Part shown: one piece after another, positions 1-22,417 of the stretch
How positions within the stretch are numbered: position 1 is the first letter of the stretch
Layout: each line of letters opens with the position of its first letter
DNA from: a virus
Lineage: Duplodnaviria; Heunggongvirae; Uroviricota; Caudoviricetes
IMG/VR virus record: IMGVR_UViG_2609459831_000017
Length of the DNA stretch: 22,417 nucleotides
Strand: one strand, 5' to 3'
Position numbers and translations under genes: made by a program
The notes under the pieces: generated by a model
The model's database searches: none
Told to the model about the DNA's origin: nothing
Seen by the model: the letters and a program-made list of their open reading frames with translations, nothing else

Positions 1-1284
1 TTACAGACTTCTGGAAGGTTGCGCAGCTCTTACAACACGCGGTTGATCTTCCGCAGCGTCTTCCAGCGCACTTAAATCACGGTCTTTCACCTCTGGCATT
101 TTCAGCGCAGAGATTAAACCAATCACTGAATATGCCATGATCATAATGGCGATCGGATACCAGGATTCCGTCATGGTGCAGAAAATACCCGCCAGGATAG
201 GACCAAAACCGGAAGCGATAAGACCACCAATTTCTTTAGAAATAGCCATCCGGGTAAAGCGGTTTTTACAGCCGAACATTTCTGCCATGGTAATGTTTTC
301 CAGAGCAAATAATCCCAGCACCGCACAGTTATGAATCACAATCAGTGCAACCATAATGGTGCTCGGGGCATAGCTTTTATCTACAATGATAGAAAGCATT
401 GGCCATGCCAGCACAATCGCGGAGGTATTCATAATAATATACGGGATCCGGCGACCAATTTTATCGGATAACCAACCAAGGAACGGAATGGTCATAAAGC
501 CGAGAATCGAACTGATCATCAATGCATCTGTTGGAATTGCTTTGTTAAACAATAACGTCTGCACTAAATAGCCTGCAAGGAAAGTCTGAATTAACTCGGA
601 GTTACCCGCCTGACCAAAACGCAGCCCTGTTGCCAGCCAGAAGGATTTGCTCTGGAACATGCTACCAGCAGGTGCAGGTTTTGCTGTCGGTTGGTTACTG
701 TCGTTAACCTTCTCAAAGACCGGGCTTTCTTTCAGATTCATACGCAACCAGATAGCAAAGACCATCACGACAACGCTCGCCAGGAACGGTATACGCCATC
801 CCCACGCCAGCAGTTCCTCTTTACTGAGAATGAAGAACATAAAGGCCCAGATTGCCGTTGCGCTCAAGGTTCCGCAGTTAGTTCCCATAGCCACAAATGA
901 GGAGATAATTCCGCGCTTACCTTTTGGCGCATATTCCGCCAGCATCGTACCGGCACCGGAAATTTCCGCACCTGCACCCAACCCCTGAATAATACGCAAC
1001 GTCACCAGCAAGATGGGTGCAAAAACACCAATCTGTGCATAGGTCGGTAACACACCAATTAAGGTGGTACAGATCCCCATCATGGTGATGGTAATAAAGA
1101 GCACTTTTTTACGCCCTATTCTGTCGCCCATTTTGCCGAAAATAAATGCTCCGACAATACGCGCCACATAACCTGCACCGTAGGTTCCCATTGCCAGAAT
1201 TAACGCCATTGCCGTTGATGATTCAGGAAAAAATATTTCATGAAACACTAACGCTGCGCCGAGCGAATATAACTGGAAATCCAT
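1..1284 (-). CDS. ydfJ: MFS transporter (metabolite:H+ symporter type), probably N-terminally truncated by the prophage insertion
   Basis: 427-aa ORF with ATG at 1282-1284 and TAA at 1-3. Multi-pass hydrophobic profile; the MFS loop 2-3 motif G-x-x-x-D-R-x-G-R-K (GKMGDRIGRKK) sits at residues ~50-60, leaving room for only one helix ahead of it. Confidence 0.85.
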   Translation of the reverse strand: MDFQLYSLGAALVFHEIFFPESSTAMALILAMGTYGAGYVARIVGAFIFGKMGDRIGRKKVLFITITMMGICTTLIGVLPTYAQIGVFAPILLVTLRIIQGLGAGAEISGAGTMLAEYAPKGKRGIISSFVAMGTNCGTLSATAIWAFMFFILSKEELLAWGWRIPFLASVVVMVFAIWLRMNLKESPVFEKVNDSNQPTAKPAPAGSMFQSKSFWLATGLRFGQAGNSELIQTFLAGYLVQTLLFNKAIPTDALMISSILGFMTIPFLGWLSDKIGRRIPYIIMNTSAIVLAWPMLSIIVDKSYAPSTIMVALIVIHNCAVLGLFALENITMAEMFGCKNRFTRMAISKEIGGLIASGFGPILAGIFCTMTESWYPIAIMIMAYSVIGLISALKMPEVKDRDLSALEDAAEDQPRVVRAAQPSRSL

Positions 1285-1886
1285 AATTCACAGGTGTTTT
1301 TTCCCATCCTGTGGTTTCCTTGGCGTTTTCTAGGTTTTTTCAGATAGTTGCATTTTTTAAAAAGCATCCTAAGTTCGATCTCAGTGTCTATCTGGGGCCT
1401 ATTTCTGTCCCATATATGCCCCAAAAAAACTCCCCAACAGATAAGTAGTTTTTTCATGGATTTATGCGTAAAATCAAGAACGGCTGGAAATCATTCAATA
1501 CTCACACTATCGAAAAATTTACCAGCCAACCGCAGCACGTTCTTGCATAAGGCGTGTCTGCGGTTTTTCAACTATTCAGATACATCACTCCCATCACATT
1601 CATTCCTCCGCATCAAAGGCATATAGGCTATATCACCTTGATATTTTTCTTTTTCAGATAAAAACTGTTATCTATGTATACTTTTAAACCCAATCCGTGT
1701 AGAGTCTCTGCATAAGATAGTTTGCAGTTGCCGCTTCAGCTTGCGCCATAACCGCCTGATTTTTGCTGCCACCTGTTAGCATTCCTGTATACCTGAAACG
1801 ACAATGTTTATCTACGAACTTTAAGAACACCCAAGATAAAAATTGTCAACTATATCATATATAACACATTACTAATTCGAGGCTAT

Positions 1887-2000
1887 ATGAACAGCATACT
1901 GATAATCACTTCTCTCCTTATCATATTCAGCATTTTTAGTCATGCCCTAATAAAATTAGGGATTGGCATATCCAATAACCCAGACAAAACCGATGTATAA
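1887..2000 (+). CDS. candidate small hydrophobic protein (37 aa, [37 protein letters not shown])
   Basis: ATG at 1887 preceded by GAGG at 1879-1882, TAA at 1998-2000. One predicted transmembrane helix plus a polar tail. Below the ORF-track cutoff; translated by hand. Confidence 0.3.
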
Positions 2001-2068
2001 GTCAACATATCCTGAATCAGACATACAATATCGCAATGAAAATCAATAATATTTTAAGGAATATCTTC

Positions 2069-2302
2069 ATGAAATCAAAAGACACCCTAAAGTGGTTCCC
2101 TGCGCAGCTTCCTGAAGTAAGAATTATCCTATGGGATGCTGTAGTGGAAGTAGCAAAACAGGGAAGACCTATCAATACCAGAACATTGCTTGATTACATT
2201 GAAGGAAACATAAAGAAAAAATCATGGCTGGATAACAAAGAATTATTACAAACAGCGATATCAGTTCTTAAAGACAACCAAAATTTAAATGGTAAAATGT
2301 AA
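2069..2302 (+). CDS. ydfK: YdfK/YnaE-family prophage protein (cold-shock-associated, function unknown)
   Basis: 77-aa product from ATG 2069 (MKSKDTLKWFPAQLPEV...) with AAGGA 9 nt upstream. Matches recalled K-12 YdfK/YnaE; the track ORF starts 11 codons earlier at 2036. Confidence 0.8.
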   Translation: MKSKDTLKWFPAQLPEVRIILWDAVVEVAKQGRPINTRTLLDYIEGNIKKKSWLDNKELLQTAISVLKDNQNLNGKM

Positions 2303-2618
2303 TATAATAAACTTACTTTTTTATCATTTTTCCACTTTAACAACATTTTGCTCCACTTTTCCACGACCAAACAACTTAAAATCTGGTTAAAATAACACGA
2401 AACACTATTCTTCTTCCTTGAGTCCGCCCGGAACTCGAAAAACAAACCGAGTTAAAGCCATTTTTCACAAAATCGATTTTGGGTCTCACCAAAATTACGG
2501 GGTTGCATACGCATTCGTTTATTTTCGAACGTGTACATACAAATATGCACAAAAATAATCAAAATTATTTTCTGCGATGCATTATGATATGAACACCAAT
2601 TTCGTATAGAGTCTCACT

Positions 2619-3209
2619 ATGTCTCGAATTTTTGCTTACTGTCGGATATCAACGCTGGATCAGACCACCGAAAATCAACGCCGGGAAATCGAAAGTGCAG
2701 GTTTTAAAATCAAACCTCAGCAAATAATCGAAGAACACATTAGCGGCTCAGCAGCAACCAGTGAGCGTCCTAGTTTTAACCGGTTGCTTGCTCGCCTGAA
2801 ATGTGGTGATCAATTGATTGTGACAAAACTGGATCGCCTTGGTTGTAATGCAATGGATATCAGGAAAACAGTGGAACAACTGACCGAAACAGGTATCAGA
2901 GTGCATTGCTTAGCATTGGGGGGCATTGACTTGACCAGTCCAACAGGAAAAATGATGATGCAAGTAATTTCAGCAGTTGCTGAATTTGAACGAGACCTTT
3001 TACTTGAACGCACTCATTCCGGGATAGTAAGAGCCCGCGGCGCAGGGAAACGTTTTGGTCGACCACCTGTGTTAAATGAAGAACAGAAACAGGTGGTATT
3101 CGAACGAATTAAGTCAGGTGTAAGTATAAGTGCCATTGCCCGGGAATTCAAAACCTCGCGGCAAACCATTTTAAGAGCCAAAGCAAAACTTCAGACACCT
3201 GACATATAA
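2619..3209 (+). CDS. pinQ: serine recombinase, DNA invertase (Pin/Gin/Hin family)
   Basis: 196 aa. N-terminal resolvase motif with catalytic Ser in YCRISTLDQ and a C-terminal helix-turn-helix; close match to recalled PinQ/PinE/Gin. Confidence 0.9.
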
Positions 3210-3306
3210 AAAATAATCTCGGTGTGAGATGCTTTACGTCTTCCAAGCCCCCTTCCTTGCCGTAAATGGAAAGATACATCTAATTAAAGAATTTATATGT
3301 TTTACC

Positions 3307-3882
3307 CTACGGCAGTGCTGGCCATTCAATATCCTGTGCAGTTGACGTATCAACACGGTTCAGCAATACCCGATACTTTTTCCATGCTTCCAGCAACGAG
3401 ATTTCTTCCTCCGTTGCAATTTCCAGATCTGCAGCATCCTGAAGCGGCGCAATATGCTCACTGGCTACCTGCATCAGGTTGTTTTTTGTTTCTTCCGCCT
3501 CCCGGATCCGGAACAGTTTTTCTGCTTCCGTATCCTTCACCCAGGCTGTGCCGTTCCACTTCTGAAACTCCCCTTCCGGCGATAACCAGGTAACATTTTT
3601 CGGTAACGGACCGAGTTCAGAAATAAATAACGCGTCGCCGGAAGCCACGTCATAAACCGTTTTACCCCGATGATCTTCAACGAGATGCCACGATGACTCA
3701 TCACTGTTGAAAACAGCCACGAAGCCAGCCGGAATATCTGGCGGTGCAATATCGGTACTGTTTGCTGGCAGACCTGTATGAGGCGGAATATATGCATCAC
3801 CTTCACCAATAAATTCATTAGTTCCGGCCAGCAGATTATAAATTGTTATGGTCCGTGGTTGTTCACTCATTCTGAATGCCAT
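3307..3882 (-). CDS. tfaQ: tail fiber assembly protein
   Basis: 191 aa; matches recalled TfaQ/lambda Tfa. Its start overlaps the stf stop (TAATG). Confidence 0.85.
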
Positions 3883-6800
3883 TATGCAAGCCTCACAATA
3901 TAGTTAAATGCGATGTTTTTGACGGTGTTTTCCGCGTTACCAGCAGCGTTAACGGTGATGGTGTGTCCATGTGAGCCAATCGCAACGGAGTGCGTATGAG
4001 CACCAATACCGACAGTATGTGCGTGTGCACCTGCGCTTGCAGCAGTACCCGATACAGAGTGCGTATGAGCGCCTGCAGAAGAAGTGTTAACACTGTATTT
4101 AGAATAATCAGGTGATCCACTTCCCGGAGCACCACTGGAACCACCTGAAACAAATGTCATCGAATGGGTATGTGCACCGGCTGAAGCAGCCGTACCGCTA
4201 ACACTATGGGTATGTGCACCAGTGTTATTCGTGGATTTAGTGCCGTAATCAAACGATGATGTGGTTTTCGTCCCCAAATCCGTACTGGATGCGCTGGCGC
4301 TGTGGGTGTGCGATTTAATGCCGTCCTGTTCCTGAGACAATACGGCACGACCACTGGCGGGCTTGCCCTTAATCGTCCAGCCACGCATATCAGGAATAAC
4401 GCCTGACGGATAAGCCACTGCAAGTTTCGGGTATGCAGATTTGTCAAAAGTCTGCCCCTGCATCAGGGCATAGCCAGACGGAACGGTATCTGATGGCCAC
4501 GGGATTGGTGCGCCGACTGGGTAGCTTTCTGGTGGAAGATTTTTCGAGGTATAAACTTCTGCCCAGTCATCCTCAAAACCATAACCGTCTCTTGAAGAAC
4601 GGTAGAACAGACCACCATTTCTGTAATGCGCCTTCATCTGCAAGGTCCGGCAACTTCCGACTCCGGTATAGAAGTTAACCAGAATATAGCTGTCGCCAGA
4701 GCGGGTGACATTGTAAGCACCTGATTCGGCATTCCAGGGAACGCCACCATCCGCATCGGCATATGTATCCGTTGCCCTTCTGGCAAAAGCAGCCACATGC
4801 GCGGCGGTTAAAGTAATATCTCTGGAACCATCAAACTCAACACCAGAAACCAGTCTTGGCGTTTGCAGCTTTGTTGCTGTTAATGCATTACCGTTCAGAC
4901 TTGCGGACAGTTTGGTTCCAATAACCAGTTCGCCGGTTGCGTTATAAATAGCAAACGGTCTTAATGTATTCCAGCCACCATAAACATCACCTTGATTGGT
5001 AAGCAGCAGGTAAGTTTTAGCGCCATCATTACGCCATAATGCACCATACTCCCCACCTATCATTCGAATCTGATTACCACCACGCGCTACAATTTCGTCT
5101 GTGGCAAAAAGTTTTTTGCACGACAAATTATCGTTAACGATTAACGAATGAGACTCATAAAAACCACGCCCACTCTTAAAATCAAGGATAACGTCCGCCG
5201 CGATACATTCAGTCGCTGGATTTGTTGCCCCAAACTTATAGGTCGTATCATTAACAACGAGATCAGCACCAGGTGCGGATATTGACAGGCCATCTTCGAT
5301 AAACGCAAAAACAGGGAAAGCAGCGCCATCAACATAGAACACAGAGCGCAAATCATCGCCCTTATTACTCATCATTATTGAGTGGATGGCTCGTTCATTG
5401 TTTTGATATTGCCAGAACATTCCATAAGCATAACGCCCCCTGTCAGTCCAGCCACCAGGCATAACAAATCCGTTAAACTCGCAGTTATTCATCGGATCGC
5501 CTGCGGTTCGCGTTGCCGTGGTGATAATGACCCTTGATGCCAGTTCGCTTACTGAGCCAGCAGAACGCATAACAACAACAGGGTAATATTTTCCAGATGT
5601 TGCACCTGCAGGAGCGTTAACCCGCACATAACGCATACCACGCTTATCAGCAAAGTCTGTTTTACTGACCGCGTTAATGTTGTTCAGGAAGCGTCCCTTA
5701 TCGGGTATATCAGTGCCGTTCTGGTCTTTCTGCAGACGTTTCTCTGCATTGTCATAGGCTGATTTTACTGCCTTTGGCGTTGCCGCCAGCGTTTCAGACG
5801 TACTGTTGGTCGCACTGCTGAGCTGTACTATCCCCTTTTTCGTCGTGCTCGCATCCTCAAGCGCCACGGCGGATGCAATATCCTCTGCCCGTTTTGCTGC
5901 TGTCTCGGCGCGCGTTGCCGCGGATTCCGCCGTACTTTTGCTCTGAGCTGCCGCCGTCGCACTGCCAGCTGCCTCTGTCGCCTTCGTGGATGCCGTCGTG
6001 GCGCTGCCCTTCGCTGCTGACGCCTGTCTGGTCGCCTCATCTTTTGAAGCAGACGCCGATGATGCCGATGACGCCGCCGAACTGGCTGACGATGCGGCAG
6101 CCGTTTTTGAGGATTCTGCGCTGGTTTCCGACGCTTTCGCGTTCGTTTCGGATGTCTTCGCTGCGGAAGCTGACCTCGCTGCTACCGTGGCCTGTTCAGT
6201 GGCTTCGCCAGCCTTCGTTGTGGCTGTTGAAGCGGATGATGCGGCGCTTTCTGCCGACTTTCCGGCAGCGGTGGCACTGGCTGAGGCCTGCCCGGCATTT
6301 GTTGACGCGGCGCTGGCAGATGAGGCAGCCGCTGTTTTTGAGTCTGCTGCTGCGGAGGCACTCTGTCCCGCTGCCGTCTCAGAAGACTTTGCGTTCGTCT
6401 CGGACGTTTTTGCCGCCTTCGCGGAAGTTCCTGCCGCTGTTGCCGAGGAGGCTGCACGACTGGCGCTCGAGGCTGCGCTCGTTTCTGATGATTTTGCCGC
6501 CTCTTTTGAAGCCGACGCATCCCTGGCTGAGGTGGCAGCTTCTGACGCTTTCGTGGTCGCGGTGGATGCAGAAGTGGCGGCTGATTGTTCTGACGCTGCC
6601 GCATTCGTTTCTGACGTTTTCGCCGCACCGGCACTGGTAGCCGCCGCGCTTTTTGAGGACTCTGCAGCGGCAGCACTTTTTGAGGCTTCAGTGGCCTTTG
6701 TTGATGCCGTTCCTGCGCTGGAAGACGCTGACTGAGCCGACGACGCGGCCTGTCCGGCTGACGTGCTGGCTGCACGTGCTGAATCTGCAGCATCAGTCGC

Positions 6801-7232
6801 ACGGGTTGCCGCCTCACTGGCAGATGTGCTGGCATCACTGGCTGACTTCTTTGCGGCTGCCGTGTTCTGTGCCACCACGGACGCGTTACGCGCCACCTCT
6901 TCCACCATCAGTTCAAAACGACGCAGTGCCTCCGGACGGGCATCATCCTCCGTCATGGCACCGAGAAAATCATTCAGCGTACCGGGTTGAGAATCTTCAT
7001 ACACGGTGATGGTCCCGGCATGTGACGGCGGGAATCCCTCCACCAACAGAATAACGCTGTACTGACCGTACTCAACGTCCATGCTGTAACGCCCGGCTTC
7101 ATCCGGATTTTCTGAGGCCAGCGTGTTCACCACCACAGTGGTACTGTTACGTTTTGCTTTCAGCTGGATTGTGCAGTTCTGTACCGGTTTTCCTGTGCCG
7201 TCTTTCAGTACACCTGAAATCTTTACTGCCAT
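3882..7232 (-). CDS. stfQ: side tail fiber protein, full length
   Basis: 1116 aa from ATG at 7230-7232 ([12 protein letters not shown]...) with GGGGTGA Shine-Dalgarno; the track ORF uses an upstream GTG at 7238. Conserved N-terminal baseplate-attachment region, long Ala/Ser/Thr-rich repeat block, and C-terminal His-rich GAHTHS repeats typical of lambda Stf/StfR. Confidence 0.85.
5885..6875 (-). repeat. imperfect tandem low-complexity coding repeats (Ala/Ser/Thr-rich) inside stf
   Basis: Reiterated motifs ([18 protein letters not shown]) in the Stf product. The GC-rich repeat DNA produces long artefactual ORFs in other frames on both strands of the track. Confidence 0.6.
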
Positions 7233-7234
7233 AT

Positions 7235-7381
7235 TCACCCCACAAAAAAGCCCGCCTGAACCGGCGGGCTGTCATAACACTGTGTTACCTGGCTAATGGC
7301 CATTGCGGCGGCACCGGGCACCGCCGTTTTGCTGATACGGCTGAGGTTTTCAACGGCCTGCTCAAGACCTTTTATGGCCAT
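7235..7381 (-). pseudogene. remnant of lambda tail gene Z (first ~29 codons only)
   Basis: Minus-strand ATG at 7379-7381, 12 nt downstream of the FII stop, translates MAIKGLEQAVENLSRISKTAVPGAAAMAI, matching the recalled lambda gpZ N-terminus, then diverges into unrelated sequence and stops at 7235-7237. Confidence 0.6.
7243..7270 (-). terminator. predicted intrinsic terminator immediately upstream of the stf ribosome-binding site
   Basis: 8-bp GC-rich stem (7249-7256 pairing 7263-7270) with a 6-nt loop, followed on the minus strand by TTTTTTG. Confidence 0.45.
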
Positions 7382-7392
7382 ACATCCCCCTT

Positions 7393-7746
7393 TCAGCGGC
7401 GACGGTTAACGGCAGGCGGTACGCCCCGTCCAAGCCAGAGATGACAACTTCCGCCATCATCCGGCGAAACCCGATCTACCCAGAAATTTTCCTCACCGAT
7501 GGTCAGCGTGTCTCCACGCCGCAGCTGCCGCACCTCATCAGTCCGGACAAACAGGGACGGGCTGGAGCCTTCAACGCGCACGCCCTGTCCGGCATAGCTG
7601 ATATTTTCAGGGTCATCAAAAACACCACGTATCACAGCACCGGACTGCTCACCGGATGTCATGGTGGCTGACGTTCCCATGTACCCGCGTATCGTTTCAT
7701 CGGCGCGGGCAATGGCAGCATCGAACAGGTTATCGAAATCAGCCAC
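7393..7746 (-). CDS. FII: head-tail joining protein FII
   Basis: 117 aa (MADFDNLFDAAIARADETIRGYMG...VNRRR), near-identical to recalled lambda gpFII. Confidence 0.9.
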   Translation of the reverse strand: MADFDNLFDAAIARADETIRGYMGTSATMTSGEQSGAVIRGVFDDPENISYAGQGVRVEGSSPSLFVRTDEVRQLRRGDTLTIGEENFWVDRVSPDDGGSCHLWLGRGVPPAVNRRR

Positions 7747-7757
7747 AGCGCCTCCCG

Positions 7758-8156
7758 TTATTGCATTCTGGCCAGGCCGCGCGCTGTCATTTCAGCTGAC
7801 ACACCGGCAGAGACACGAAACGCCGTTCCCGGCAGCACAAATGCCACAGGTTCATCCCGCGTGGCGTGAAGTGCATCAGTATGCAGCGTCACCAGTGCCA
7901 CGACCGTGACCAGTTCAGACGTATCCAGAATCACGGTATCCGGCTGCGCTGATCCCACCTCATTTTCATGTCCGGTCAGCACATTTTCCCGGCTGAGAGG
8001 GGTGTCCTGACCGGCAGTTTCATCCGTGTCATCAAGCTCCTCTTCCAGCTCTGCCACACGGAGCGCCAGTTCTTCTTTCGTCCCCGTCAGGCTGACATCA
8101 CGGTTCAGTTGTTCACCCAGCGAGCGGAGACGGGCAATCAGTTCATCTTTCGTCAT
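7758..8156 (-). CDS. FI: DNA packaging protein FI
   Basis: 132 aa from ATG at 8154-8156 (MTKDELIARLRSLGEQLN...), matching recalled lambda gpFI; the track ORF extends 13 codons upstream to a GTG. Confidence 0.85.
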   Translation of the reverse strand: MTKDELIARLRSLGEQLNRDVSLTGTKEELALRVAELEEELDDTDETAGQDTPLSRENVLTGHENEVGSAQPDTVILDTSELVTVVALVTLHTDALHATRDEPVAFVLPGTAFRVSAGVSAEMTARGLARMQ

Positions 8157-8197
8157 GGACTCCTCCACAGAGAGAAAATGGCCCCGAAGGGCCATGA

Positions 8198-8674
8198 TTA
8201 CGCCAGTTGAACGGCCACGAACTCATCAGGATCAGCCAGCAGCATCAGCGGTGCTGACTGAATCATGGTGAACTCTCGCGCCGGATCGCCGGATGTCTTC
8301 CAGTTTTTCGGATAACGGGGAGACGCATTAATACCCTCACTCAATGCATCCGCATCCTGAATACAGCCATAGGTGCGCAGACCGCGTGCATGAGTGTTAC
8401 CCAGCACCATCGTGTTGTCCGGCAGGAAGTTCTTTTTGACGCCGTTTTCCACGTACTGTCCGGAATACACGACGATGGCCACATCGCCATACATCCCCTT
8501 ATAGGACACCGCTTTACCCAGGTCTTTCACCGCTGTCTCCAGCTCGGAATGAGAGCCACGACGGGTATCCAGCTTCTCCCTGACGGCTTTGAAGGAACGG
8601 AACAGCGCCCAGCCTTTCGGATCGAACACGATGATATTCACCACACCGCTGGCGTTCAGCGCGTAGGCTTCGAT
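8198..8674 (-). pseudogene. C-terminal fragment of major capsid protein E (about 158 codons), no native start
   Basis: Translation IEAYALNASGVVNIIVFDPKGWALFRSF...VAVQLA matches the C-terminal portion of recalled lambda gpE. The frame continues upstream past 8674 into unrelated codons, offset by one from the A' frame. Confidence 0.8.
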
Positions 8675-9906
8675 ACGCGCATTTCGTAGCGGTCCAGCTG
8701 GGAGTCGATACCGGCGGTCAGGTAAGCCACACGGTCAGGAACGGGCGCTGAATAATGCTCTTTCCGCTCTGCCATCACTTCAGCATCCGGACGTTCACCG
8801 ATTTTCGCTTCCCACGTCTCACCGAGCGTGGTGTTCACGAAGGTTTTACGTTTTCCCGTATCCCCTTTCGTCTTCATCCAGTCTTTGACAATCTGCACCC
8901 AGGTGGTGAACGGACTGTACGCCGTCCAGATGTGAAAGGTCACACTGTCAGGCGGTTCAATCTCTTCACCGGATGACGAAAACCAGAGAATGCCATCACG
9001 GGTCCAGATCCCGGTCTTTTCGCAGATATAACGGGCATCAGTAAAGTCCAGCTCCTGCTGACGGATGACGCAGGCGTTATGCTCACAGAGATAAAACACG
9101 CTGGAGGGGTCATCCGGCATCCATTTGAGGCCAAACGGCGTCTCTTTGTCGCCAAATTTAAGGTACTGCTCCTTCCCGCAGTGCGGGCAGGCAACATGAA
9201 AACGCATAAAATGCGGGGATTCACTGGCTGCACGCTCAATCTGGCAGGTGCCTCTCACTTTGGGCGTGGAGCCACGGATGGACTTTGGCCAGACCGAGCC
9301 TTCAATACGTTTGTCGCCAAGGAACGTCGGAGAGCCTTCCTGTTCAATATCCTCATCAAAGGCAGCAAGTTCATCATAACCCGCCACATCCACCGACTTT
9401 TCACGGTAGTTTTTTGCCGCTTTACCGCCCAGGCACCAGAAGCCACGACCATTGGTGAAACGCTTCATAGTGAGCGTGTTATCCCGGTGCTTTTTGCCAT
9501 ACCACGGAGCCAGCGCCAGCAGCGACGGAATATCGCGGATGGTCGGCTCAACGTGGGTTTTCATAAAGTTCTCGGCATCACCATCCGTCGGCAACCAGAT
9601 AAGTGTGTTGCGCTGCTTATGCTCTATAAAGTAGGCATAAACACCCAGCAGCATTTTGGAATAACCGACACGGGCAGACTTCACCACATTCACCTCACGG
9701 ATGTAGTCGCTGCCCATCGCATTCATGATGGCCCGCTGAAAGGGCAGTGTTTCCCAGCGCCCTTCCTGGTATGCGGATTCTTTCGGGAGATAGTAATTAG
9801 CATCCGCCCATTCAACGGCGGTCTGTGGCTCCGGCCTGAACAGTGAGCGAAGCCCGGCGCGGACAAAATGCCGCAGCCTGTTAACCTGACTGTTCGATAT
9901 ATTCAC
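8656..9906 (-). pseudogene. terminase large subunit A, truncated after ~409 codons
   Basis: MNISNSQVNRLRHFVRAGL...DRYEMRV matches the N-terminal two-thirds of recalled lambda gpA (641 aa), then 5 unrelated codons (SKPTR) and TGA at 8656-8658. The C-terminal region is absent. Confidence 0.85.
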
Positions 9907-10426
9907 TCAGCAACCCCGGTATCAGTTCATCCAGCGCGGCTGCTTTGTTCATGGCTTTGATGATATCCCGTTTCAGGAAATCAACATGTCGGTTTTCCAG
10001 TTCCGGAAAACGCCGCTGCACCGACAGGGGGATCCCGTCGAGAATACTGGCAATTTCACCTGCGATCCGCGACAGCACGAAAGTACAGAATGCGGTTTCC
10101 ACCACTTCAGCGGAGTCTCTGGCATTTTTCAGCTCCTGTGCGTCGGCCTGCGCACGCGTAAGTCGATGGCGTTCGTACTCAATAGTCCCTGGCTGGAGAT
10201 CTGTCTCGCTGGCCCGCCGCAGTTCTTCAACTTCCCGGCGCAGCTTTTCGTTCTCAATTTCAGCATCCCTTTCGGCATACCATCTTATAACGGCGGCAGA
10301 GTCATAAAGCACCTCATTACCCTTGCCACCGCCTCGCAGAACGGGCATTCCCTGTTCCTGCCAGTTCTGAATGGTACGGATACTCGCACCGAAAATGTCA
10401 GCCAGCTGCTTTTTGTTGACTTCCAT
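9881..10426 (-). CDS. nohQ: terminase small subunit (Nu1 homolog)
   Basis: 181 aa (MEVNKKQLADIFGASIRTIQNWQEQGMPVLRGGGKGNEVLYD...), near-identical to recalled lambda Nu1, including the winged-helix DNA-binding N-terminus. Its 3' end overlaps the A' start. Confidence 0.9.
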   Translation of the reverse strand: MEVNKKQLADIFGASIRTIQNWQEQGMPVLRGGGKGNEVLYDSAAVIRWYAERDAEIENEKLRREVEELRRASETDLQPGTIEYERHRLTRAQADAQELKNARDSAEVVETAFCTFVLSRIAGEIASILDGIPLSVQRRFPELENRHVDFLKRDIIKAMNKAAALDELIPGLLSEYIEQSG

Positions 10427-10603
10427 TGTTCATTCCACGGCCAAAAACAGAGAAAGGAAACGACAGAGGCCCAAAAGTTCGTTTTCAGCACCTGTCGTTT
10501 CCTTTCTTTTTAGGGGGTATTTTAAATAAAAACATTAAGTTACGACGAAGAAGAACGGAAACGCCTTAAACCGGAAAATTTTCATAAATAGCGAAAACCC
10601 GCG
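10427..10603 (-). promoter_or_regulatory. cosB-like terminase binding region
   Basis: Lies between cosN and the Nu1 start. Perfect 16-bp inverted repeat AGAAAGGAAACGACAG (10441-10456) and CTGTCGTTTCCTTTCT (10482-10497), resembling lambda R elements. Confidence 0.6.
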
Positions 10604-10615
10604 AGGTCGCCGCCC
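10604..10615. other. cosN cohesive-end site
   Basis: Plus strand AGGTCGCCGCCC is the reverse complement of GGGCGGCGACCT, the recalled 12-nt lambda cohesive end, positioned ~190 nt upstream of Nu1 as in lambda. Confidence 0.75.
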
Positions 10616-10814
10616 CGTAACCTGTCGGATCACCGGAAAGGACCCGTAAAGTGATAATGATTATCATCTACATATCACAACGTGCGTGGAGGCCATCAAA
10701 CCACGTCAAATAATCAATTATGACGCAGGTATCGTATTAATTGATCTGCATCAACTTAACGTAAAAACAACTTCAGACAATACAAATCAGCGACACTGAA
10801 TACGGGGCAACCTC

Positions 10815-11048
10815 ATGTCAACGAAGAACAGAACCCGCAGAACAACAACCCGCAACATCCGCTTTCCTAACCAAATGATTGAACAAATTAACATCGCTCT
10901 TGAGCAAAAAGGGTCCGGGAATTTCTCAGCCTGGGTCATTGAAGCCTGCCGCCGGAGACTGTGCTCAGAAAAAAGAGTTTCTTCTGAAGCAAACAAAGAA
11001 AAGAGTGACATTACTGAATTGCTCAGAAAACAGGTCAGACCAGATTGA
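10815..11048 (+). CDS. ynfO: small prophage protein, YnfO/YlcI (DUF3950)-like
   Basis: 77 aa (MSTKNRTRRTTTRNIRFPNQMIEQINIALEQKGSGNFSAWVIEACRRRL...) next to cos, as recalled for K-12 Qin. Confidence 0.7.
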   Translation: MSTKNRTRRTTTRNIRFPNQMIEQINIALEQKGSGNFSAWVIEACRRRLCSEKRVSSEANKEKSDITELLRKQVRPD

Positions 11049-13089: not shown

Positions 13090-14113
<1,024 letters not shown>

Positions 14114-17314: not shown

Positions 17315-18364
17315 TTACGCCAGTACGCCAATTGCCAGCGCGCGATCGATAAAACGAAATATCAGCTCCAGTTGGGAGCCATACTTATCTTCAAATGCCA
17401 CTGTATCCGTATGCAGCTCGTTGTGATGCTTTCTGCACAAAGGCAACACAAAGAGATCATGTGCTTTTGTTCCCATTCCGCCCTGCCCGTGACCAATCAG
17501 ATGATGCGGATCGTCGGCTGGCATACCGCAGCAAGCACACGGCTGTGTCTTAACCCAACGTGTGTATTTCTCCTTAACCCAGCGGCGACGTTTAGGCAGC
17601 TTCATGAAAGATTCCGGAGACTCTGGATCAACGGTGATGCTTACCACCGTCTTTTCCTGTGGTGATTTTTGTTGCTGGTGGGCGTAAGGCAACGGTGCAA
17701 GATTTTTTGTGCGTTGTTTCAATATGCTGGTGGCGGTCTGCTCTCCCGGTACGATGTCGCTTTCGCGGTACACCGAGCAGATTTTTTCCGCTGGTAATCC
17801 CAGCGAACGACGCGATACAGCCTCAGGTAGTGCATCCACCACCTGATTGCAGACCGCCCACCAGGATAATTCAGCCAAAGATAATTCCCGCTCCTGCGTA
17901 CCGCTTATTGCGTGACGGATGACGTCAATCACCCATGCTGTCAGATTTTGTTGAGCAAGCAGCTCCAGTGATTCCGATGTCTGGTCACGCAGTTGGTTGT
18001 CGCAGTGCCAGCACAACACCATTGCGCCGGTACCATAACGGTGAATGACTGTTTCAGTGTGATGGTAATCGCCATTAGGCCACTGGCAGGATGTAACATG
18101 ACGTAATAGCCAGTCGGACAATGCGCCAACGCCGCCAGCAGCACGAATCACCCGTTCGTTACTAAAAAACGGCAGCAATGTTTTGTCTTCCGCCAGCGGC
18201 TGGCGAACGGCAGGAACGACTCCGGATGGCAGATTACGCATGCTTTTTGGTTCCGGTTCCACCAGCACTCGAGGATTATGAAATATCTGTATGGATTCAC
18301 GGCCCGGCTTAAGGACCACCAGCCCAAGCTCAGGCACCAGAACAGGTCTAAGTAATACCCGCAC
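17315..18364 (-). CDS. ydfU: YdfU-like protein (DUF968) with C-terminal HNH-like Cys/His motif
   Basis: 349 aa from GTG at 18362-18364, 1 nt below the rem stop; an in-frame extension reaches 18403 (362 aa). C-terminal motif QPCACCGMPADDPHHLIGHGQGG...CRKHHNELH. Ends 14 nt upstream of the Q start. Confidence 0.7.
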   Translation of the reverse strand: MRVLLRPVLVPELGLVVLKPGRESIQIFHNPRVLVEPEPKSMRNLPSGVVPAVRQPLAEDKTLLPFFSNERVIRAAGGVGALSDWLLRHVTSCQWPNGDYHHTETVIHRYGTGAMVLCWHCDNQLRDQTSESLELLAQQNLTAWVIDVIRHAISGTQERELSLAELSWWAVCNQVVDALPEAVSRRSLGLPAEKICSVYRESDIVPGEQTATSILKQRTKNLAPLPYAHQQQKSPQEKTVVSITVDPESPESFMKLPKRRRWVKEKYTRWVKTQPCACCGMPADDPHHLIGHGQGGMGTKAHDLFVLPLCRKHHNELHTDTVAFEDKYGSQLELIFRFIDRALAIGVLA

Positions 18365-21254: not shown

Positions 21255-21554
21255 ATGACAAAAACAGTATCAACCAGTAAAAAACCCCGTAAACAGCATT
21301 CGCCTGAATTTCGCAGTGAAGCCCTGAAGCTTGCTGAACGCATCGGTGTTACTGCCGCAGCCCGTGAACTCAGCCTGTATGAATCACTGCTCTACAACTG
21401 GCGCAGTAAACAGCAAAATCAGCAGACGTCTTCTGAACGTGAACTGGAGATGTCTACCGAGATTGCACGTCTCAAACGCCAGCTGGCAGAACGGGATGAA
21501 GAGCTGGCTATCCTCCAAAAGGCCGCGACATACTTCGCGAAGCGCCTGAAATGA
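21255..21554 (+). CDS. insE: IS3 OrfA (transposase N-terminal, helix-turn-helix)
   Basis: 99 aa ([43 protein letters not shown]...) from ATG 21255; the track ORF uses an upstream GTG at 21246. Confidence 0.9.
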
Positions 21555-22417
21555 AGTATGTCTTTATTGAAAAACATCAGGCTGAGTTCAGCATCAAAGC
21601 AATGTGCCGCGTGCTCCGGGTGGCCCGCAGCGGCTGGTATACGTGGTGTCAGCGGCGGACAAGGATAAGCACGCGTCAGCAGTTCCGCCAACACTGCGAC
21701 AGCGTTGTCCTCGCGGCTTTTACCCGGTCAAAACAGCGTTACGGTGCCCCACGCCTGACGGATGAACTGCGTGCTCAGGGTTACCCCTTTAACGTAAAAA
21801 CCGTGGCGGCAAGCCTGCGCCGTCAGGGACTGAGGGCAAAGGCCTCCCGGAAGTTCAGCCCGGTCAGCTACCGCGCACACGGCCTGCCTGTGTCAGAAAA
21901 TCTGTTGGAGCAGGATTTTTACGCCAGTGGCCCGAACCAGAAGTGGGCAGGAGACATCACGTACTTACGTACAGATGAAGGCTGGCTGTATCTGGCAGTG
22001 GTCATTGACCTGTGGTCACGTGCCGTTATTGGCTGGTCAATGTCGCCACGCATGACGGCGCAACTGGCCTGCGATGCCCTGCAGATGGCGCTGTGGCGGC
22101 GTAAGAGGCCCCGGAACGTTATCGTTCACACGGACCGTGGAGGCCAGTACTGTTCAGCAGATTATCAGGCGCAACTGAAGCGGCATAATCTGCGTGGAAG
22201 TATGAGCGCAAAAGGTTGCTGCTACGATAATGCCTGCGTGGAAAGCTTCTTTCATTCGCTGAAAGTGGAATGTATCCATGGAGAACACTTTATCAGCCGG
22301 GAAATAATGCGGGCAACGGTATTTAATTATATCGAATGTGATTACAATCGGTGGCGGCGGCACAGTTGGTGTGGCGGCCTCAGTCCGGAACAATTTGAAA
22401 ACCAGAACCTCGCTTAG
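21551..22417 (+). CDS. insF: IS3 OrfB (DDE transposase catalytic domain), made as an OrfAB fusion by -1 frameshift
   Basis: 288 aa with DDE/RNase-H-fold motifs ([28 protein letters not shown]). Frame is -1 relative to orfA; the overlap includes A-AAA-G at 21517-21521. Confidence 0.9.

Follow-up and report, generated by a model that had tools for sequence, protein, structure and literature searches.

Introduction

The cos-nohA remnants of the cryptic prophages Qin and DLP12 have long been known from Escherichia coli K-12. Purified lambda terminase reportedly cuts the K-12 chromosome at the noh loci (nohA/nohB), in work attributed to Kotani et al. 1992 (Nucleic Acids Res 20:3357). Unexcised lambda prophages also reportedly give rise to doc particles (Little and Gottesman 1971; Sternberg and Weisberg 1975).

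In lambda-type phages, cosN is defined as 16 bp (PMC9026076) and cosQ is a conserved 7-bp site (PMC4669245). Initiation of packaging depends on the length and sequence of the I2 spacer (PMC4856287), in which deletions as small as 3 bp are harmful (PMC9026076, PMC4856287). To terminate, lambda-type terminases require a downstream cosQ-cosN (PMC4669245, PMC9026076, PMC4856287, PMC6687093). Cos phages depend on this second cut, and a tail cannot join a head from which DNA protrudes (PMC6687093); packaging without cosQ-directed termination is a lethal failure (PMC4856287).

Chromosomal cos sites can be served by a terminase supplied in trans. Repressed chromosomal sites are used in this way at about 1-2 virions per induced cell, and helper phages package repressed chromosomal cos-to-cos segments (PMC4669245). 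The cos/nohD segment of DLP12 is functional in lambda, and 10 of 19 recombinant junctions adjoin cos (PMC3945230). In contrast to K-12 strains, E. coli C lacks a lambda-type cosN and contains hardly any DNA of defective lambda-like prophages (PMC4669245).

Here we describe the cos site of a Qin prophage in a 22,417-nt stretch of DNA (IMG/VR virus record IMGVR_UViG_2609459831_000017), referred to below at its full length as the window.

Results

The window is 100% identical to positions 1787319-1809735 of the chromosome of E. coli strain 1303 (NZ_CP009166.1), and the RefSeq annotation of 1303 around it is the Qin gene set. Compared with K-12, this annotation places the prophage in Qin: it is inserted in ydfJ, adjoins rspB, and has the matching gene order (ydfK-pinQ-tfaQ ... 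nohA-ynfO-ydfO-gnsB-cspI-rzpQ-rrrQ ... relBE-flxA). The layout of K-12 Qin is the same and includes an annotated nohA; Qin nohA and its cos are not new, both being already within the K-12 reference annotation and literature. From the ydfJ' junction to int, the 1303 element measures ~29.3 kb, or ~60% of the lambda genome.

A first-pass annotation had proposed an apparently intact cos site beside an intact Nu1 gene and a defective large terminase gene. The elements of the cos site are as follows.

10639-10645, minus strand: cosQ (GGGTCCT on the minus strand), 7 bp, packaging termination; lambda-identical
10602-10617, minus strand: cosN, 16 bp, with the 12-nt cohesive-end sequence GGGCGGCGACCT (10604-10615) flanked by 2 bp on either side
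10566-10598, minus strand: I2 spacer (lambda bp 18-50) between cosN and cosB; lambda-identical in sequence and length
10551-10566, minus strand: R3 (lambda bp 50-65), critical Nu1-binding site; lambda-identical
10553-10561, minus strand: contact bases 55-63 of R3 (coordinates from PMC9026076)
10508-10550, minus strand: R3-R2 interval including the IHF site I1; 3 substitutions (lambda 73, 102, 105)
10492-10507, minus strand: R2 (lambda 109-124), Nu1-binding site, inverted relative to R3 and R1; 16-mer lambda-identical
10451-10466, minus strand: R1 (lambda 151-166), accessory Nu1-binding site; 16-mer lambda-identical

The cohesive-end sequence had been placed at 10604-10615, and this is indeed its single exact match in the window, on the minus strand (chance expectation 0.05). 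The 22-mer TTACGGGGCGGCGACCTCGCGG likewise occurs once (10599-10620; chance expectation 0), and the flanks of cosN equal those of lambda base for base. The cosQ-to-cosN distance is also that of lambda, as is the cosN-to-R3 spacing, lambda 1-72 being identical with zero indels. The lambda counterpart of this cosQ is lambda 48473-48479 (coordinates attributed to Wieczorek and Feiss 2001). No variation in cosQ was seen across 7 of 7 aligned cos regions, and an R4-like repeat copy overlaps it.

The perfect 16-bp inverted repeat reported for the cosB-like region proved to be R1 and R2, namely AGAAAGGAAACGACAG (R1, 10451-10466) and CTGTCGTTTCCTTTCT (R2, 10492-10507), and lambda carries the same two 16-mers. 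R3, I1, R2 and R1 stand in this order, with R2 inverted and with repeats identical to those of lambda. By sequence criteria, this is a lambda-type cos site with a complex cosB, and it is the genuine cosQ-cosN-I2-R3-I1-R2-R1 of a Qin-family lambda-like prophage at the ydfJ'/rspB locus. The span originally drawn for the feature (9881-10620) does contain cosN, cosB and nohA, but it stops just short of cosQ (10639-10645).

A base-by-base comparison with lambda cos, which had been suggested as a check, left cosQ, cosN, R3, R2 and R1 unaltered and confined all changes to the cosB spacers. Over lambda 48167-48502 and 1-72, the window shows zero differences. The 7 differences all fall within lambda 73-190 (73 A>G, 102 T>C, 105 G>A, 134 G>A, 138/139 GG>A, 145 T>G, 176 T>G), and 6 of them are also present in PhiR42_1, PhiR49_1, Kati or DLP12; the PhiR phage records are of a provenance unconfirmed by literature, no source publication having been found for them. 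A73G and T102C are common to DLP12 and phage records. G105A, in the I1-R2 spacer, occurred in none of the deposited phage records compared and was found in full-length prophages. This substitution could weaken IHF-assisted binding; lambda without IHF still gives a yield of about 30% (PMC4856287). The best IHF-consensus core (lambda 79-91), predicted from the consensus, corresponds to 10525-10537, and this 13-bp core is unchanged, with substitutions 73, 102 and 105 all falling outside it.

Over 254 bp, the cos region is 97.2% identical to lambda, which falls inside the spread of lambda-like phage records (95-97%). An identical 254-bp cos, together with an identical NohA, is also found in a prophage whose lambda-type head and tail module is complete. 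In the K-12 Qin and DLP12 remnants, cosQ, cosN, I2, R2 and R1 are unchanged while the spacers vary; R3 carries G54A in K-12 Qin and C53T in DLP12, each a single base outside the contact segment 55-63. The Nu1 start codon is at bp 190 in 1303 and at bp 191 in lambda.

The head and tail genes on the nohA side of cos are listed below.

9881-10426, minus strand: nohA, intact gene for the terminase small subunit, a Nu1 homologue of 181 aa (177/181 identities with lambda Nu1, 98%)
8656-9906, minus strand: gpA', truncated terminase large subunit, residues 1-411 of 641 followed by 5 unrelated codons
8198-8675, minus strand: C-terminal fragment of the major capsid gene E, fused to gpA' (Pfam Phage_cap_E, 191-328 of 329)
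7758-8156, minus strand: FI, head-completion gene, intact (annotation and Pfam Packaging_FI)
7393-7746, minus strand: FII, head-completion gene, intact (annotation and Pfam Phage_attach)
7293-7381, minus strand: N-terminal stub of tail gene Z (from alignment to VG888-46E9)

The small terminase gene is intact, as first described, and its product gives a full-length Pfam Phage_Nu1 match (335 bits). The changes that separate NohA from lambda Nu1 (K48R, Q71R, A75T and L132I) spare the recognition helix (17-24), the wing (31-39) and the C-terminal 40 residues, and the protein accession is shared with a full-length prophage. The Nu1/A overlap is 26 bp in 1303, as in lambda.

The large terminase, in turn, is truncated and lacks residues 412-641. 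The retained part is identical to lambda gpA 1-411 at 408 of 411 positions (99%) and bears no further lesions. In Pfam, GpA_ATPase is complete and GpA_nuclease is matched only at profile positions 2-95 of 294; RefSeq lists the gene as a pseudogene. Lost with these residues are the portal-binding tail and most of the nuclease domain, and the element has no complete TerL (ATPase, nuclease, coiled-coil and portal-binding C-terminus) in cis.

A full-length sister prophage in strain VG888-46E9 is 99.9% identical, and 1303 differs from it by two simple deletions, whose junctions we mapped by small alignments against that prophage. The A'/E' deletion removed ~4.7 kb (junction ~8673-8675, microhomology ATA), and the second removed ~11.6 kb from Z to lom (junction ~7293-7297, microhomology TAAT). 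The 1303 Qin prophage has thereby lost W, B, C/Nu3, D, the N-terminus of E and all tail-shaft genes. The two deletions together took away the part of gpA for nuclease activity and portal binding, the portal, protease/scaffold and decoration genes, part of the capsid gene and the tail genes from Z to lom, which leaves the element incapable of cutting cos or building particles. The element can therefore neither cut its own cos, as had been claimed, nor package its own DNA. It represents an early stage of decay.

Among 5,426 complete E. coli genomes, the cos region was present in 4,595, with a median of two per genome. The exact A'/E' junction was found in 2 of these genomes, both bovine isolates; the idea that gpA' is a selected dominant-negative terminase fragment was rejected as unsupported, the junction being so rare (2/5,426). 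In species-representative genomes, the cosN 22-mer gave only 11 matches, which offers no ground for a conservation statistic.

We defined a packageable unit by a second cosQ-cosN in the same orientation 38-51 kb downstream (about 78-105% of lambda length). No second cosN (22-mer, <=3 mismatches) was detected elsewhere in the window (positions 1-10598) or in 50 kb of sequence on either side, downstream and upstream, and the Qin cos of 1303 does not bound a cos-to-cos packageable unit. The proposal that makes the neighbouring chromosome a candidate for packaging by a helper is thus unsupported as stated, since there is no second cosN within 50-60 kb. A second cos-like copy exists in the 1303 chromosome outside 50-60 kb on either side of the Qin cos, and it is probably the DLP12 remnant. 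No second match to the tested gpA/E segment was found in 1303 at megablast sensitivity; without a second copy of the gpA segment, any helper must be external. The first correctly oriented Chi lies 3.1 kb from the cosQ-side end.

Packaging of the whole excised element was also considered and rejected: neither one unit (~60% of lambda length) nor two (~121%) would fall in the packageable range, and no sign of a replication module was noticed.

Two regulatory sites lie beyond cosQ.

10653-10668, no strand assigned: Fur box GATAATGATTATCATC, just past cosQ on the side away from cosN
10737-10760, minus strand: FNR site TTAAGTTGATGCAGATCAATTAAT, exact match to the reported K-12 FNR target

The Fur box is at -233 from nohA, the position of the K-12 Fur site cluster, and its sequence is identical in K-12 Qin and lambda. 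In K-12, the Fur site cluster upstream of nohA has been confirmed by gel shift (PMC2189734). The FNR site is also present in lambda, and the K-12 target upstream of nohA/nohB was identified by ChIP-chip and EMSA; transcription changed only marginally when fnr was deleted, and the promoter showed low activity (PMC1802558).

Discussion

Recognition and cutting of the Qin cos by a terminase of lambda specificity acting in trans is very plausible. Recognition in trans is well supported, as 1303 and lambda agree in each of the defined contact elements. From these elements and from trans use elsewhere (PMC4669245, PMC3945230), we infer that a phage of lambda specificity would recognize the site, in agreement with the first-pass annotation.

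What we consider likely is that this intact lambda-type cos, when cut in trans by a helper, would lead to dead-end packaging and break-stimulated recombination, not to efficient transduction. Terminase of lambda specificity from an infecting or induced lambdoid phage (possibly also of N15 type) would bind R3/R2 via Nu1 and IHF and then nick cosN. It would be retained on the nohA-side end and would thread DNA leftwards into a prohead, through nohA, A', stf, pinQ and ydfJ', and then ydfI ... marRAB ... lsr ... hipBA. Such a run could not terminate, because no second cosQ-cosN lies within capsid length, and the filled head would be left with protruding DNA, unable to take a tail. The realistic outcome would be a double-strand break made by terminase, followed by recombination, with the cosQ-side end open to RecBCD and Chi 3.1 kb off. 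The Qin cos would then serve as a reservoir and hotspot for cos-Nu1 exchange with infecting lambdoid phages, and transduction by doc-like particles would be at most very rare. For 1303 Qin, the break-and-recombination consequence is extrapolated from DLP12 in K-12.

One-sided, helper-dependent packaging with a productive outcome appears unlikely. Heads would be filled with ~48 kb to the left of cos (the remnant, ydfI-dcp, marRAB, lsr, to hipBA), and some would mature once the protruding DNA was broken or trimmed, giving gene flow from a fixed origin that resembles lateral transduction. There is a precedent in docL particles, which Sternberg and Weisberg reportedly obtained from unexcised lambda prophages in 1975; these are said to contain one cohesive end with adjacent host DNA and to be completable after DNase trimming. 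In 1303, all elements for initiation are intact, marRAB, lsr and hipBA do lie on the path that such a run would take, and chromosomal cos sites are usable in trans (PMC4669245), but no terminating cos lies within 60 kb downstream. The requirement for a second cut and the block to tail joining by protruding DNA (PMC6687093), together with the lethal failure without cosQ-directed termination (PMC4856287), also oppose maturation of these heads. Moreover, when lambda virion DNA was sequenced from a lysogen of K-12, a host that carries the Qin and DLP12 cos sites, nearly all of it mapped to lambda and to flanks of ~25 kb, with no reported signal at Qin or DLP12 (PMC7667829).

The broader proposition is that single cryptic-prophage cos sites are fixed launch points for one-directional helper packaging of host genes, a cos-phage form of lateral transduction that would run to the marRAB-lsr-hipBA side at Qin and would rely on breakage or trimming for maturation, with no second cut; we regard this as very doubtful. 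If such rare maturation did occur, near-universal cryptic cos sites would make the surroundings of Qin and DLP12, including the mar locus, hotspots of directional transfer.

It is similarly improbable that the site is an inert relic, a cos that, the deletions being very recent, has not had time to decay and that affects neither host nor phage. The deletions do look recent, given an A'/E' junction restricted to those two bovine isolates, a gpA' still 99% identical to lambda with no added lesions, and a sister strain that keeps the full prophage at 99.9% identity. Yet the much older remnants in K-12 Qin and DLP12 keep cosQ, cosN, I2, R2 and R1 while their spacers vary, and the cos region is retained in 4,595 of the 5,426 genomes. 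The DLP12 cos, in addition, measurably shapes recombination with lambda (PMC3945230). This effect and the conservation of cos make inertness unlikely whenever a lambda-type phage infects. When a helper is absent, the inert reading and the one we prefer overlap.

It is hardly credible that this DNA has been kept mainly as a Fur/FNR regulatory region for nohA and/or ynfO-ydfO and not as a packaging signal, for although the Fur box and FNR site match experimentally validated K-12 sites, both lie outside cosQ-cosB and are equally present in lambda, the effect of fnr deletion on transcription is marginal and promoter activity low (PMC1802558), and such a role would not account for the fact that cosN, I2 and the R sites are conserved.

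As it stands, our finding adds one more decay state of a well-known cryptic prophage, whose packaging signal has long been recognized in K-12. For helper cutting followed by recombination, the reading we prefer, the practical meaning is that a lambda-type phage propagated on strains of this kind encounters a perfect chromosomal cos as well as a Nu1 allele of 98% identity. These would favour break-stimulated recombination and mosaic phages, as with DLP12. This is also the reason why work on packaging genetics favours hosts that lack cos, such as E. coli C.

Comparison with known systems

Gram-negative cos-type PICIs, such as EcCICFT073, resemble the 1303 element in being chromosomal, in having a lambda-like cosN and in depending on the terminase and capsids of a helper. 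PICIs, however, carry a cosB of their own, retarget TerS by means of an Rpp protein, undergo excision and replication, and are packaging-sized. The 1303 Qin prophage has a true Nu1, lysis genes, structural-gene remnants and no rpp, and does not fit the description of a PICI, which would lack lysis and structural genes and carry an Rpp-type protein in place of TerS by cos.

In the dilysogen helper packaging of the Feiss laboratory, a repressed chromosomal cos is cut by a helper terminase of matching cosB specificity. There, a second cos stands one genome length downstream, whereas 1303 has none within 50-60 kb. Lambda doc particles reportedly arise when a single chromosomal cos launches one-sided packaging into the host DNA beside it, and they have only one cohesive end. 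They are reported for an induced complete lambda prophage, and the 1303 case, a cryptic-prophage cos with a heterologous helper, would be comparable by analogy.

Phage lambda itself has cosQ, cosN, I2, R3, R2 and R1 of the same sequence, order, orientation and spacing, and its Nu1 and gpA(1-411) are 98% and 99% identical to the 1303 proteins. In contrast to lambda, 1303 has a single chromosomal cos that is not in a concatemer, 7 cosB spacer substitutions, a gpA without 412-641, and deletions of most morphogenetic genes.

K-12 Qin shares the chromosomal locus and flanking genes with 1303 and has a nearly identical cos. The 1303 copy is less decayed: its nohA encodes the full 181 aa, while the K-12 annotation gives nohA as an ORF of 189 aa that overlaps stfQ. 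Compared with K-12 Qin and DLP12, 1303 also retains gpA(1-411), E', FI, FII, Z' and a full-length stf, and its R3 is identical to that of lambda, unlike R3 in K-12 Qin (G54A) and DLP12 (C53T).

Source locus

The window matched the chromosome of E. coli 1303, a bovine mastitis isolate, at 100% identity over all 22,417 bp (NZ_CP009166.1, 1787319-1809735). Its RefSeq annotation contains the gene set of the Qin cryptic prophage: in the left part a truncated ydfJ, ydfK, pinQ, tfaQ, a tail-fibre gene, capsid and terminase pseudogenes and nohA; then ynfO, ydfO, gnsB, cspI, rzpQ, rrrQ, essD, cspB, cspF, ydfT (Q) and ydfU; and at the right end rem, hokD, relBE, flxA and IS3. The K-12 reference labels the equivalent locus 'cryptic prophage Qin' and nohA 'putative prophage DNA-packaging protein'. 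By location and gene order, the element (~29.3 kb) belongs to the Qin prophage family. In 1303, IS3 lies between flxA and ydfW (window 21255-22417) and is absent from the sister prophage of strain VG888-46E9. The tail-fibre ORF (window 3882-7238; 1118 aa) is uninterrupted in 1303, and its VG888-46E9 counterpart is split by IS1 (L011, the sister prophage sequence, 7968-8665).

An intact lambda-type cos

We aligned the window minus strand with the ends of lambda NC_001416 and with the DE3 prophage, in which these ends are joined. The features were as follows.

8656-9906, minus strand: gpA' ORF, matching gpA residues 1-411 at 408/411, with a stop 5 codons on
9881-10426, minus strand: nohA, 181 aa, 177/181 identical to lambda Nu1
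10451-10466, minus strand: R1, 16-mer unchanged from lambda
10492-10507, minus strand: R2, 16-mer unchanged from lambda
10551-10566, minus strand: R3, inside a lambda-identical stretch
10604-10615, minus strand: 12-nt cohesive end of cosN
10639-10645, minus strand: cosQ, GGGTCCT, inside a lambda-identical stretch
10653-10668: Fur box, GATAATGATTATCATC
10737-10760: FNR site, TTAAGTTGATGCAGATCAATTAAT

The exact lambda cohesive end noted by the first-pass annotation was confirmed as a single match, and a 22-mer across cosN also occurred once in the window, against 0 expected by chance. The perfect 16-bp inverted repeat described in cosB corresponds to lambda R1 and R2. An R4-like repeat copy overlapping cosQ was also detected. 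The window was identical to lambda bp 48167-48502 and bp 1-72, covering cosQ, cosN, the I2 spacer and R3. The rest of cosB differed at seven positions (73 A>G, 102 T>C, 105 G>A, 134 G>A, 138/139 GG>A, 145 T>G and 176 T>G), all between R elements; the strongest match to the IHF core consensus in the R3-R2 interval (lambda 79-91) was unchanged. Disabling changes in the cosN flanks or R elements were looked for in this alignment and none was present: cosQ, cosN, I2, R3, R2 and R1 were unaltered, with changes in cosB spacers alone. Judged by its sequence, the site is a lambda-type cos with a complex cosB.

What looks like the loss of 1 bp at 138/139 reflects an oddity of NC_001416, which has the longer form; DE3 and the other aligned lambda-like phages and prophages have the shorter one, and two other 'phage Lambda' records gave gap-free 254-bp BLAST matches, implying the shorter form there too. 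The extra G, located between R2 and R1, is explained either by variation among stocks or by an early sequencing error.

Within R3 (bp 50-65), TerS contacts bp 55-63, mutations at 56, 58 and 59 alter packaging, and the spacing between cosN and cosB is critical (Murialdo & Feiss 2022, PMC9026076). No R3 position, TerS contact base or cosN-cosB spacing was altered in the window, and IHF is merely stimulatory, lambda yield being ~30% without it (PMC4856287). Six of the seven changes recur in K-12 DLP12 or in database genomes of lambda-like phages (PhiR42_1, PhiR49_1, Kati). The cos-nohD segment of DLP12 works once recombined into lambda (PMC3945230). G105A alone is confined to this lineage. Ten genomes carry the 254-bp cos at 100% identity, and hence G105A; among them is VG888-46E9, in which the prophage occupying this locus carries the head and tail genes of a lambda-type phage in full. 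Because lambda-like phage records diverge from the window cos by 2.8-4.7% over 254 bp (the nearest being lambda, at 97.2%), the site lies inside the natural range. The cos region is almost ubiquitous in E. coli: 4,595 of 5,426 complete genomes have it, with a median of 2 copies.

In the alignment of seven sequences, the spacers varied and cosQ, cosN, I2, R2 and R1 did not. The R3 of 1303 equals that of lambda, unlike the K-12 remnants, each of which has one change at the R3 5' edge (Qin G54A, also in phage PhiR42_1; DLP12 C53T). Window 10616-10952 contains 336 bp identical to the lambda right end, ending within ynfO (10815-11048, plus strand), which indicates that lambda keeps a 5' remnant of a ynfO/ylcI-like (DUF3950) gene beside cos. 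The textbook Fur box lies just beyond cosQ, its K-12 counterpart having been validated upstream of nohA/nohB (PMC2189734), and the FNR site is an exact copy of the K-12 site validated there (PMC1802558); both also occur in the lambda right end. The exact cosN 22-mer with a lambda-identical cosB was also found in assemblies of Raphidiopsis brookii D9, Aeromicrobium sp. PE09-221, Archangium violaceum Cb vi76 and an Alicyclobacillus fastidiosus plasmid. The cosQ side is lambda-identical in three of these four non-enteric assemblies and diverges in the Archangium contig. Such matches most likely reflect contamination by lambda or cosmid vectors.

Intact nohA and a truncated large terminase

As first annotated, the small terminase gene is intact: Pfam Phage_Nu1 covers NohA full length, and its changes from lambda Nu1 (K48R, Q71R, A75T and L132I) all lie outside the recognition helix (17-24), the wing (31-39) and the C-terminal TerL-binding region. 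Truncation of the large terminase was likewise verified, the gpA match stopping after residue 411. gpA' retains the TerS-binding N-terminus, the entire ATPase domain and the first third only of the nuclease domain; the coiled-coil and portal-binding C-terminus are missing.

In alignment, two clean deletions separate 1303 from the full-length VG888-46E9 prophage. One joins gpA codon 411 to the last 158 codons of E (junction ~8673-8675, microhomology ATA), and the other leaves ~28 codons from the start of Z joined to a point just upstream of stf (junction ~7293-7297, microhomology TAAT). Of 5,426 complete genomes, only 2 carried the A'/E' junction, each from a bovine isolate, indicating that the deletion is recent and clonal. 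Given the gpA' truncation and the deletions, the element cannot make its own cos cut, as had been proposed, or particles.

Probable outcomes with a helper phage

In lambda, TerS on cosB places TerL for cosN nicking; terminase then remains at the cosB-side end and moves DNA in the direction of Nu1, nucleases have access to the end on the cosQ side, and a downstream cosQ-cosN is needed to end packaging (PMC4669245, PMC9026076, PMC4856287). Repressed prophage DNA between two chromosomal cos sites is helper-packaged at ~1-2 virions per induced cell, provided that helper and upstream cosB agree in specificity; lambda cos is accepted by N15-type terminase as well (PMC4669245). At megablast sensitivity, the tested gpA segment had no second copy in 1303, so a helper must come from outside.

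A lambda-specificity helper would cut the window cos and start to package toward lower window coordinates, exiting the prophage after 9.3 kb and then running through ydfI, dcp, marRAB and lsr to hipBA. The 50 kb that such a run would thread into a head (NZ_CP009166.1, 1737400-1787350) holds hipBA, marRAB, eamA and the lsr autoinducer-2 operon; farther on is an island with an integrase and IS2 that the simple K-12 layout lacks. A 22-mer search allowing up to 3 mismatches found no second cosN in the rest of the window, 50 kb downstream or 50 kb upstream. With no second cosN nearby and an element of this length, the usual path to a mature particle is blocked, and the element is not a packageable cos-to-cos unit. 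Because cos terminases require a second site and protruding DNA blocks tail attachment, cos phages are assumed not to do generalised transduction (Chiang, Penadés & Chen 2019, PMC6687093). In a K-12 lysogen, with both Qin and DLP12 cos present, the DNA packaged in lambda virions was nearly all lambda plus ~25-kb flanks (PMC7667829), consistent with no productive packaging from these sites.

The first-pass interpretation was half right. Given the intact cos elements, and by analogy with helper packaging (PMC4669245), the site is very plausibly cuttable in trans, and the element is defective in cis. The adjacent chromosome had also been proposed as a candidate for helper-dependent packaging, but productive packaging is not expected with no second cosN within 50 kb on either side. 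It appears very improbable that isolated cos sites of this kind give rise to infrequent, directional mobilisation of neighbouring host genes.

Stimulation of recombination by a terminase-made break at cos would be a better-supported consequence than packaging. In DLP12, half of the lambda-prophage recombinant junctions adjoined cos (PMC3945230). On the exposed (cosQ) side, the first actively oriented Chi lies 3.1 kb off, in rrrQ. The 22.4 kb contains five Chi octamers against 0.71 expected from shuffles (window 13692-13699, 17674-17733 and 18259-18323), the nearest being correctly oriented for RecBCD entry at the cosQ-side end of a cut cos. Lambda, the model relative of the Qin prophage, is not known to carry Chi.

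Comparison with known systems

The element is not a PICI-type satellite: those have Rpp, whereas this one has a true Nu1 together with lysis and structural genes. One-sided packaging from a lone prophage cos is reported to yield doc particles. Kotani et al. in 1992 reportedly cut the K-12 chromosome at noh loci with lambda terminase. The DLP12 copy was studied by De Paepe et al. (PMC3945230), and the Feiss laboratory prefers E. coli C over K-12 because E. coli C is without a lambda-type cosN (PMC4669245). The cos-noh remnants of Qin and DLP12 have long been known and the feature is not new; the cos-nohA of 1303 is merely a less decayed allele of it.
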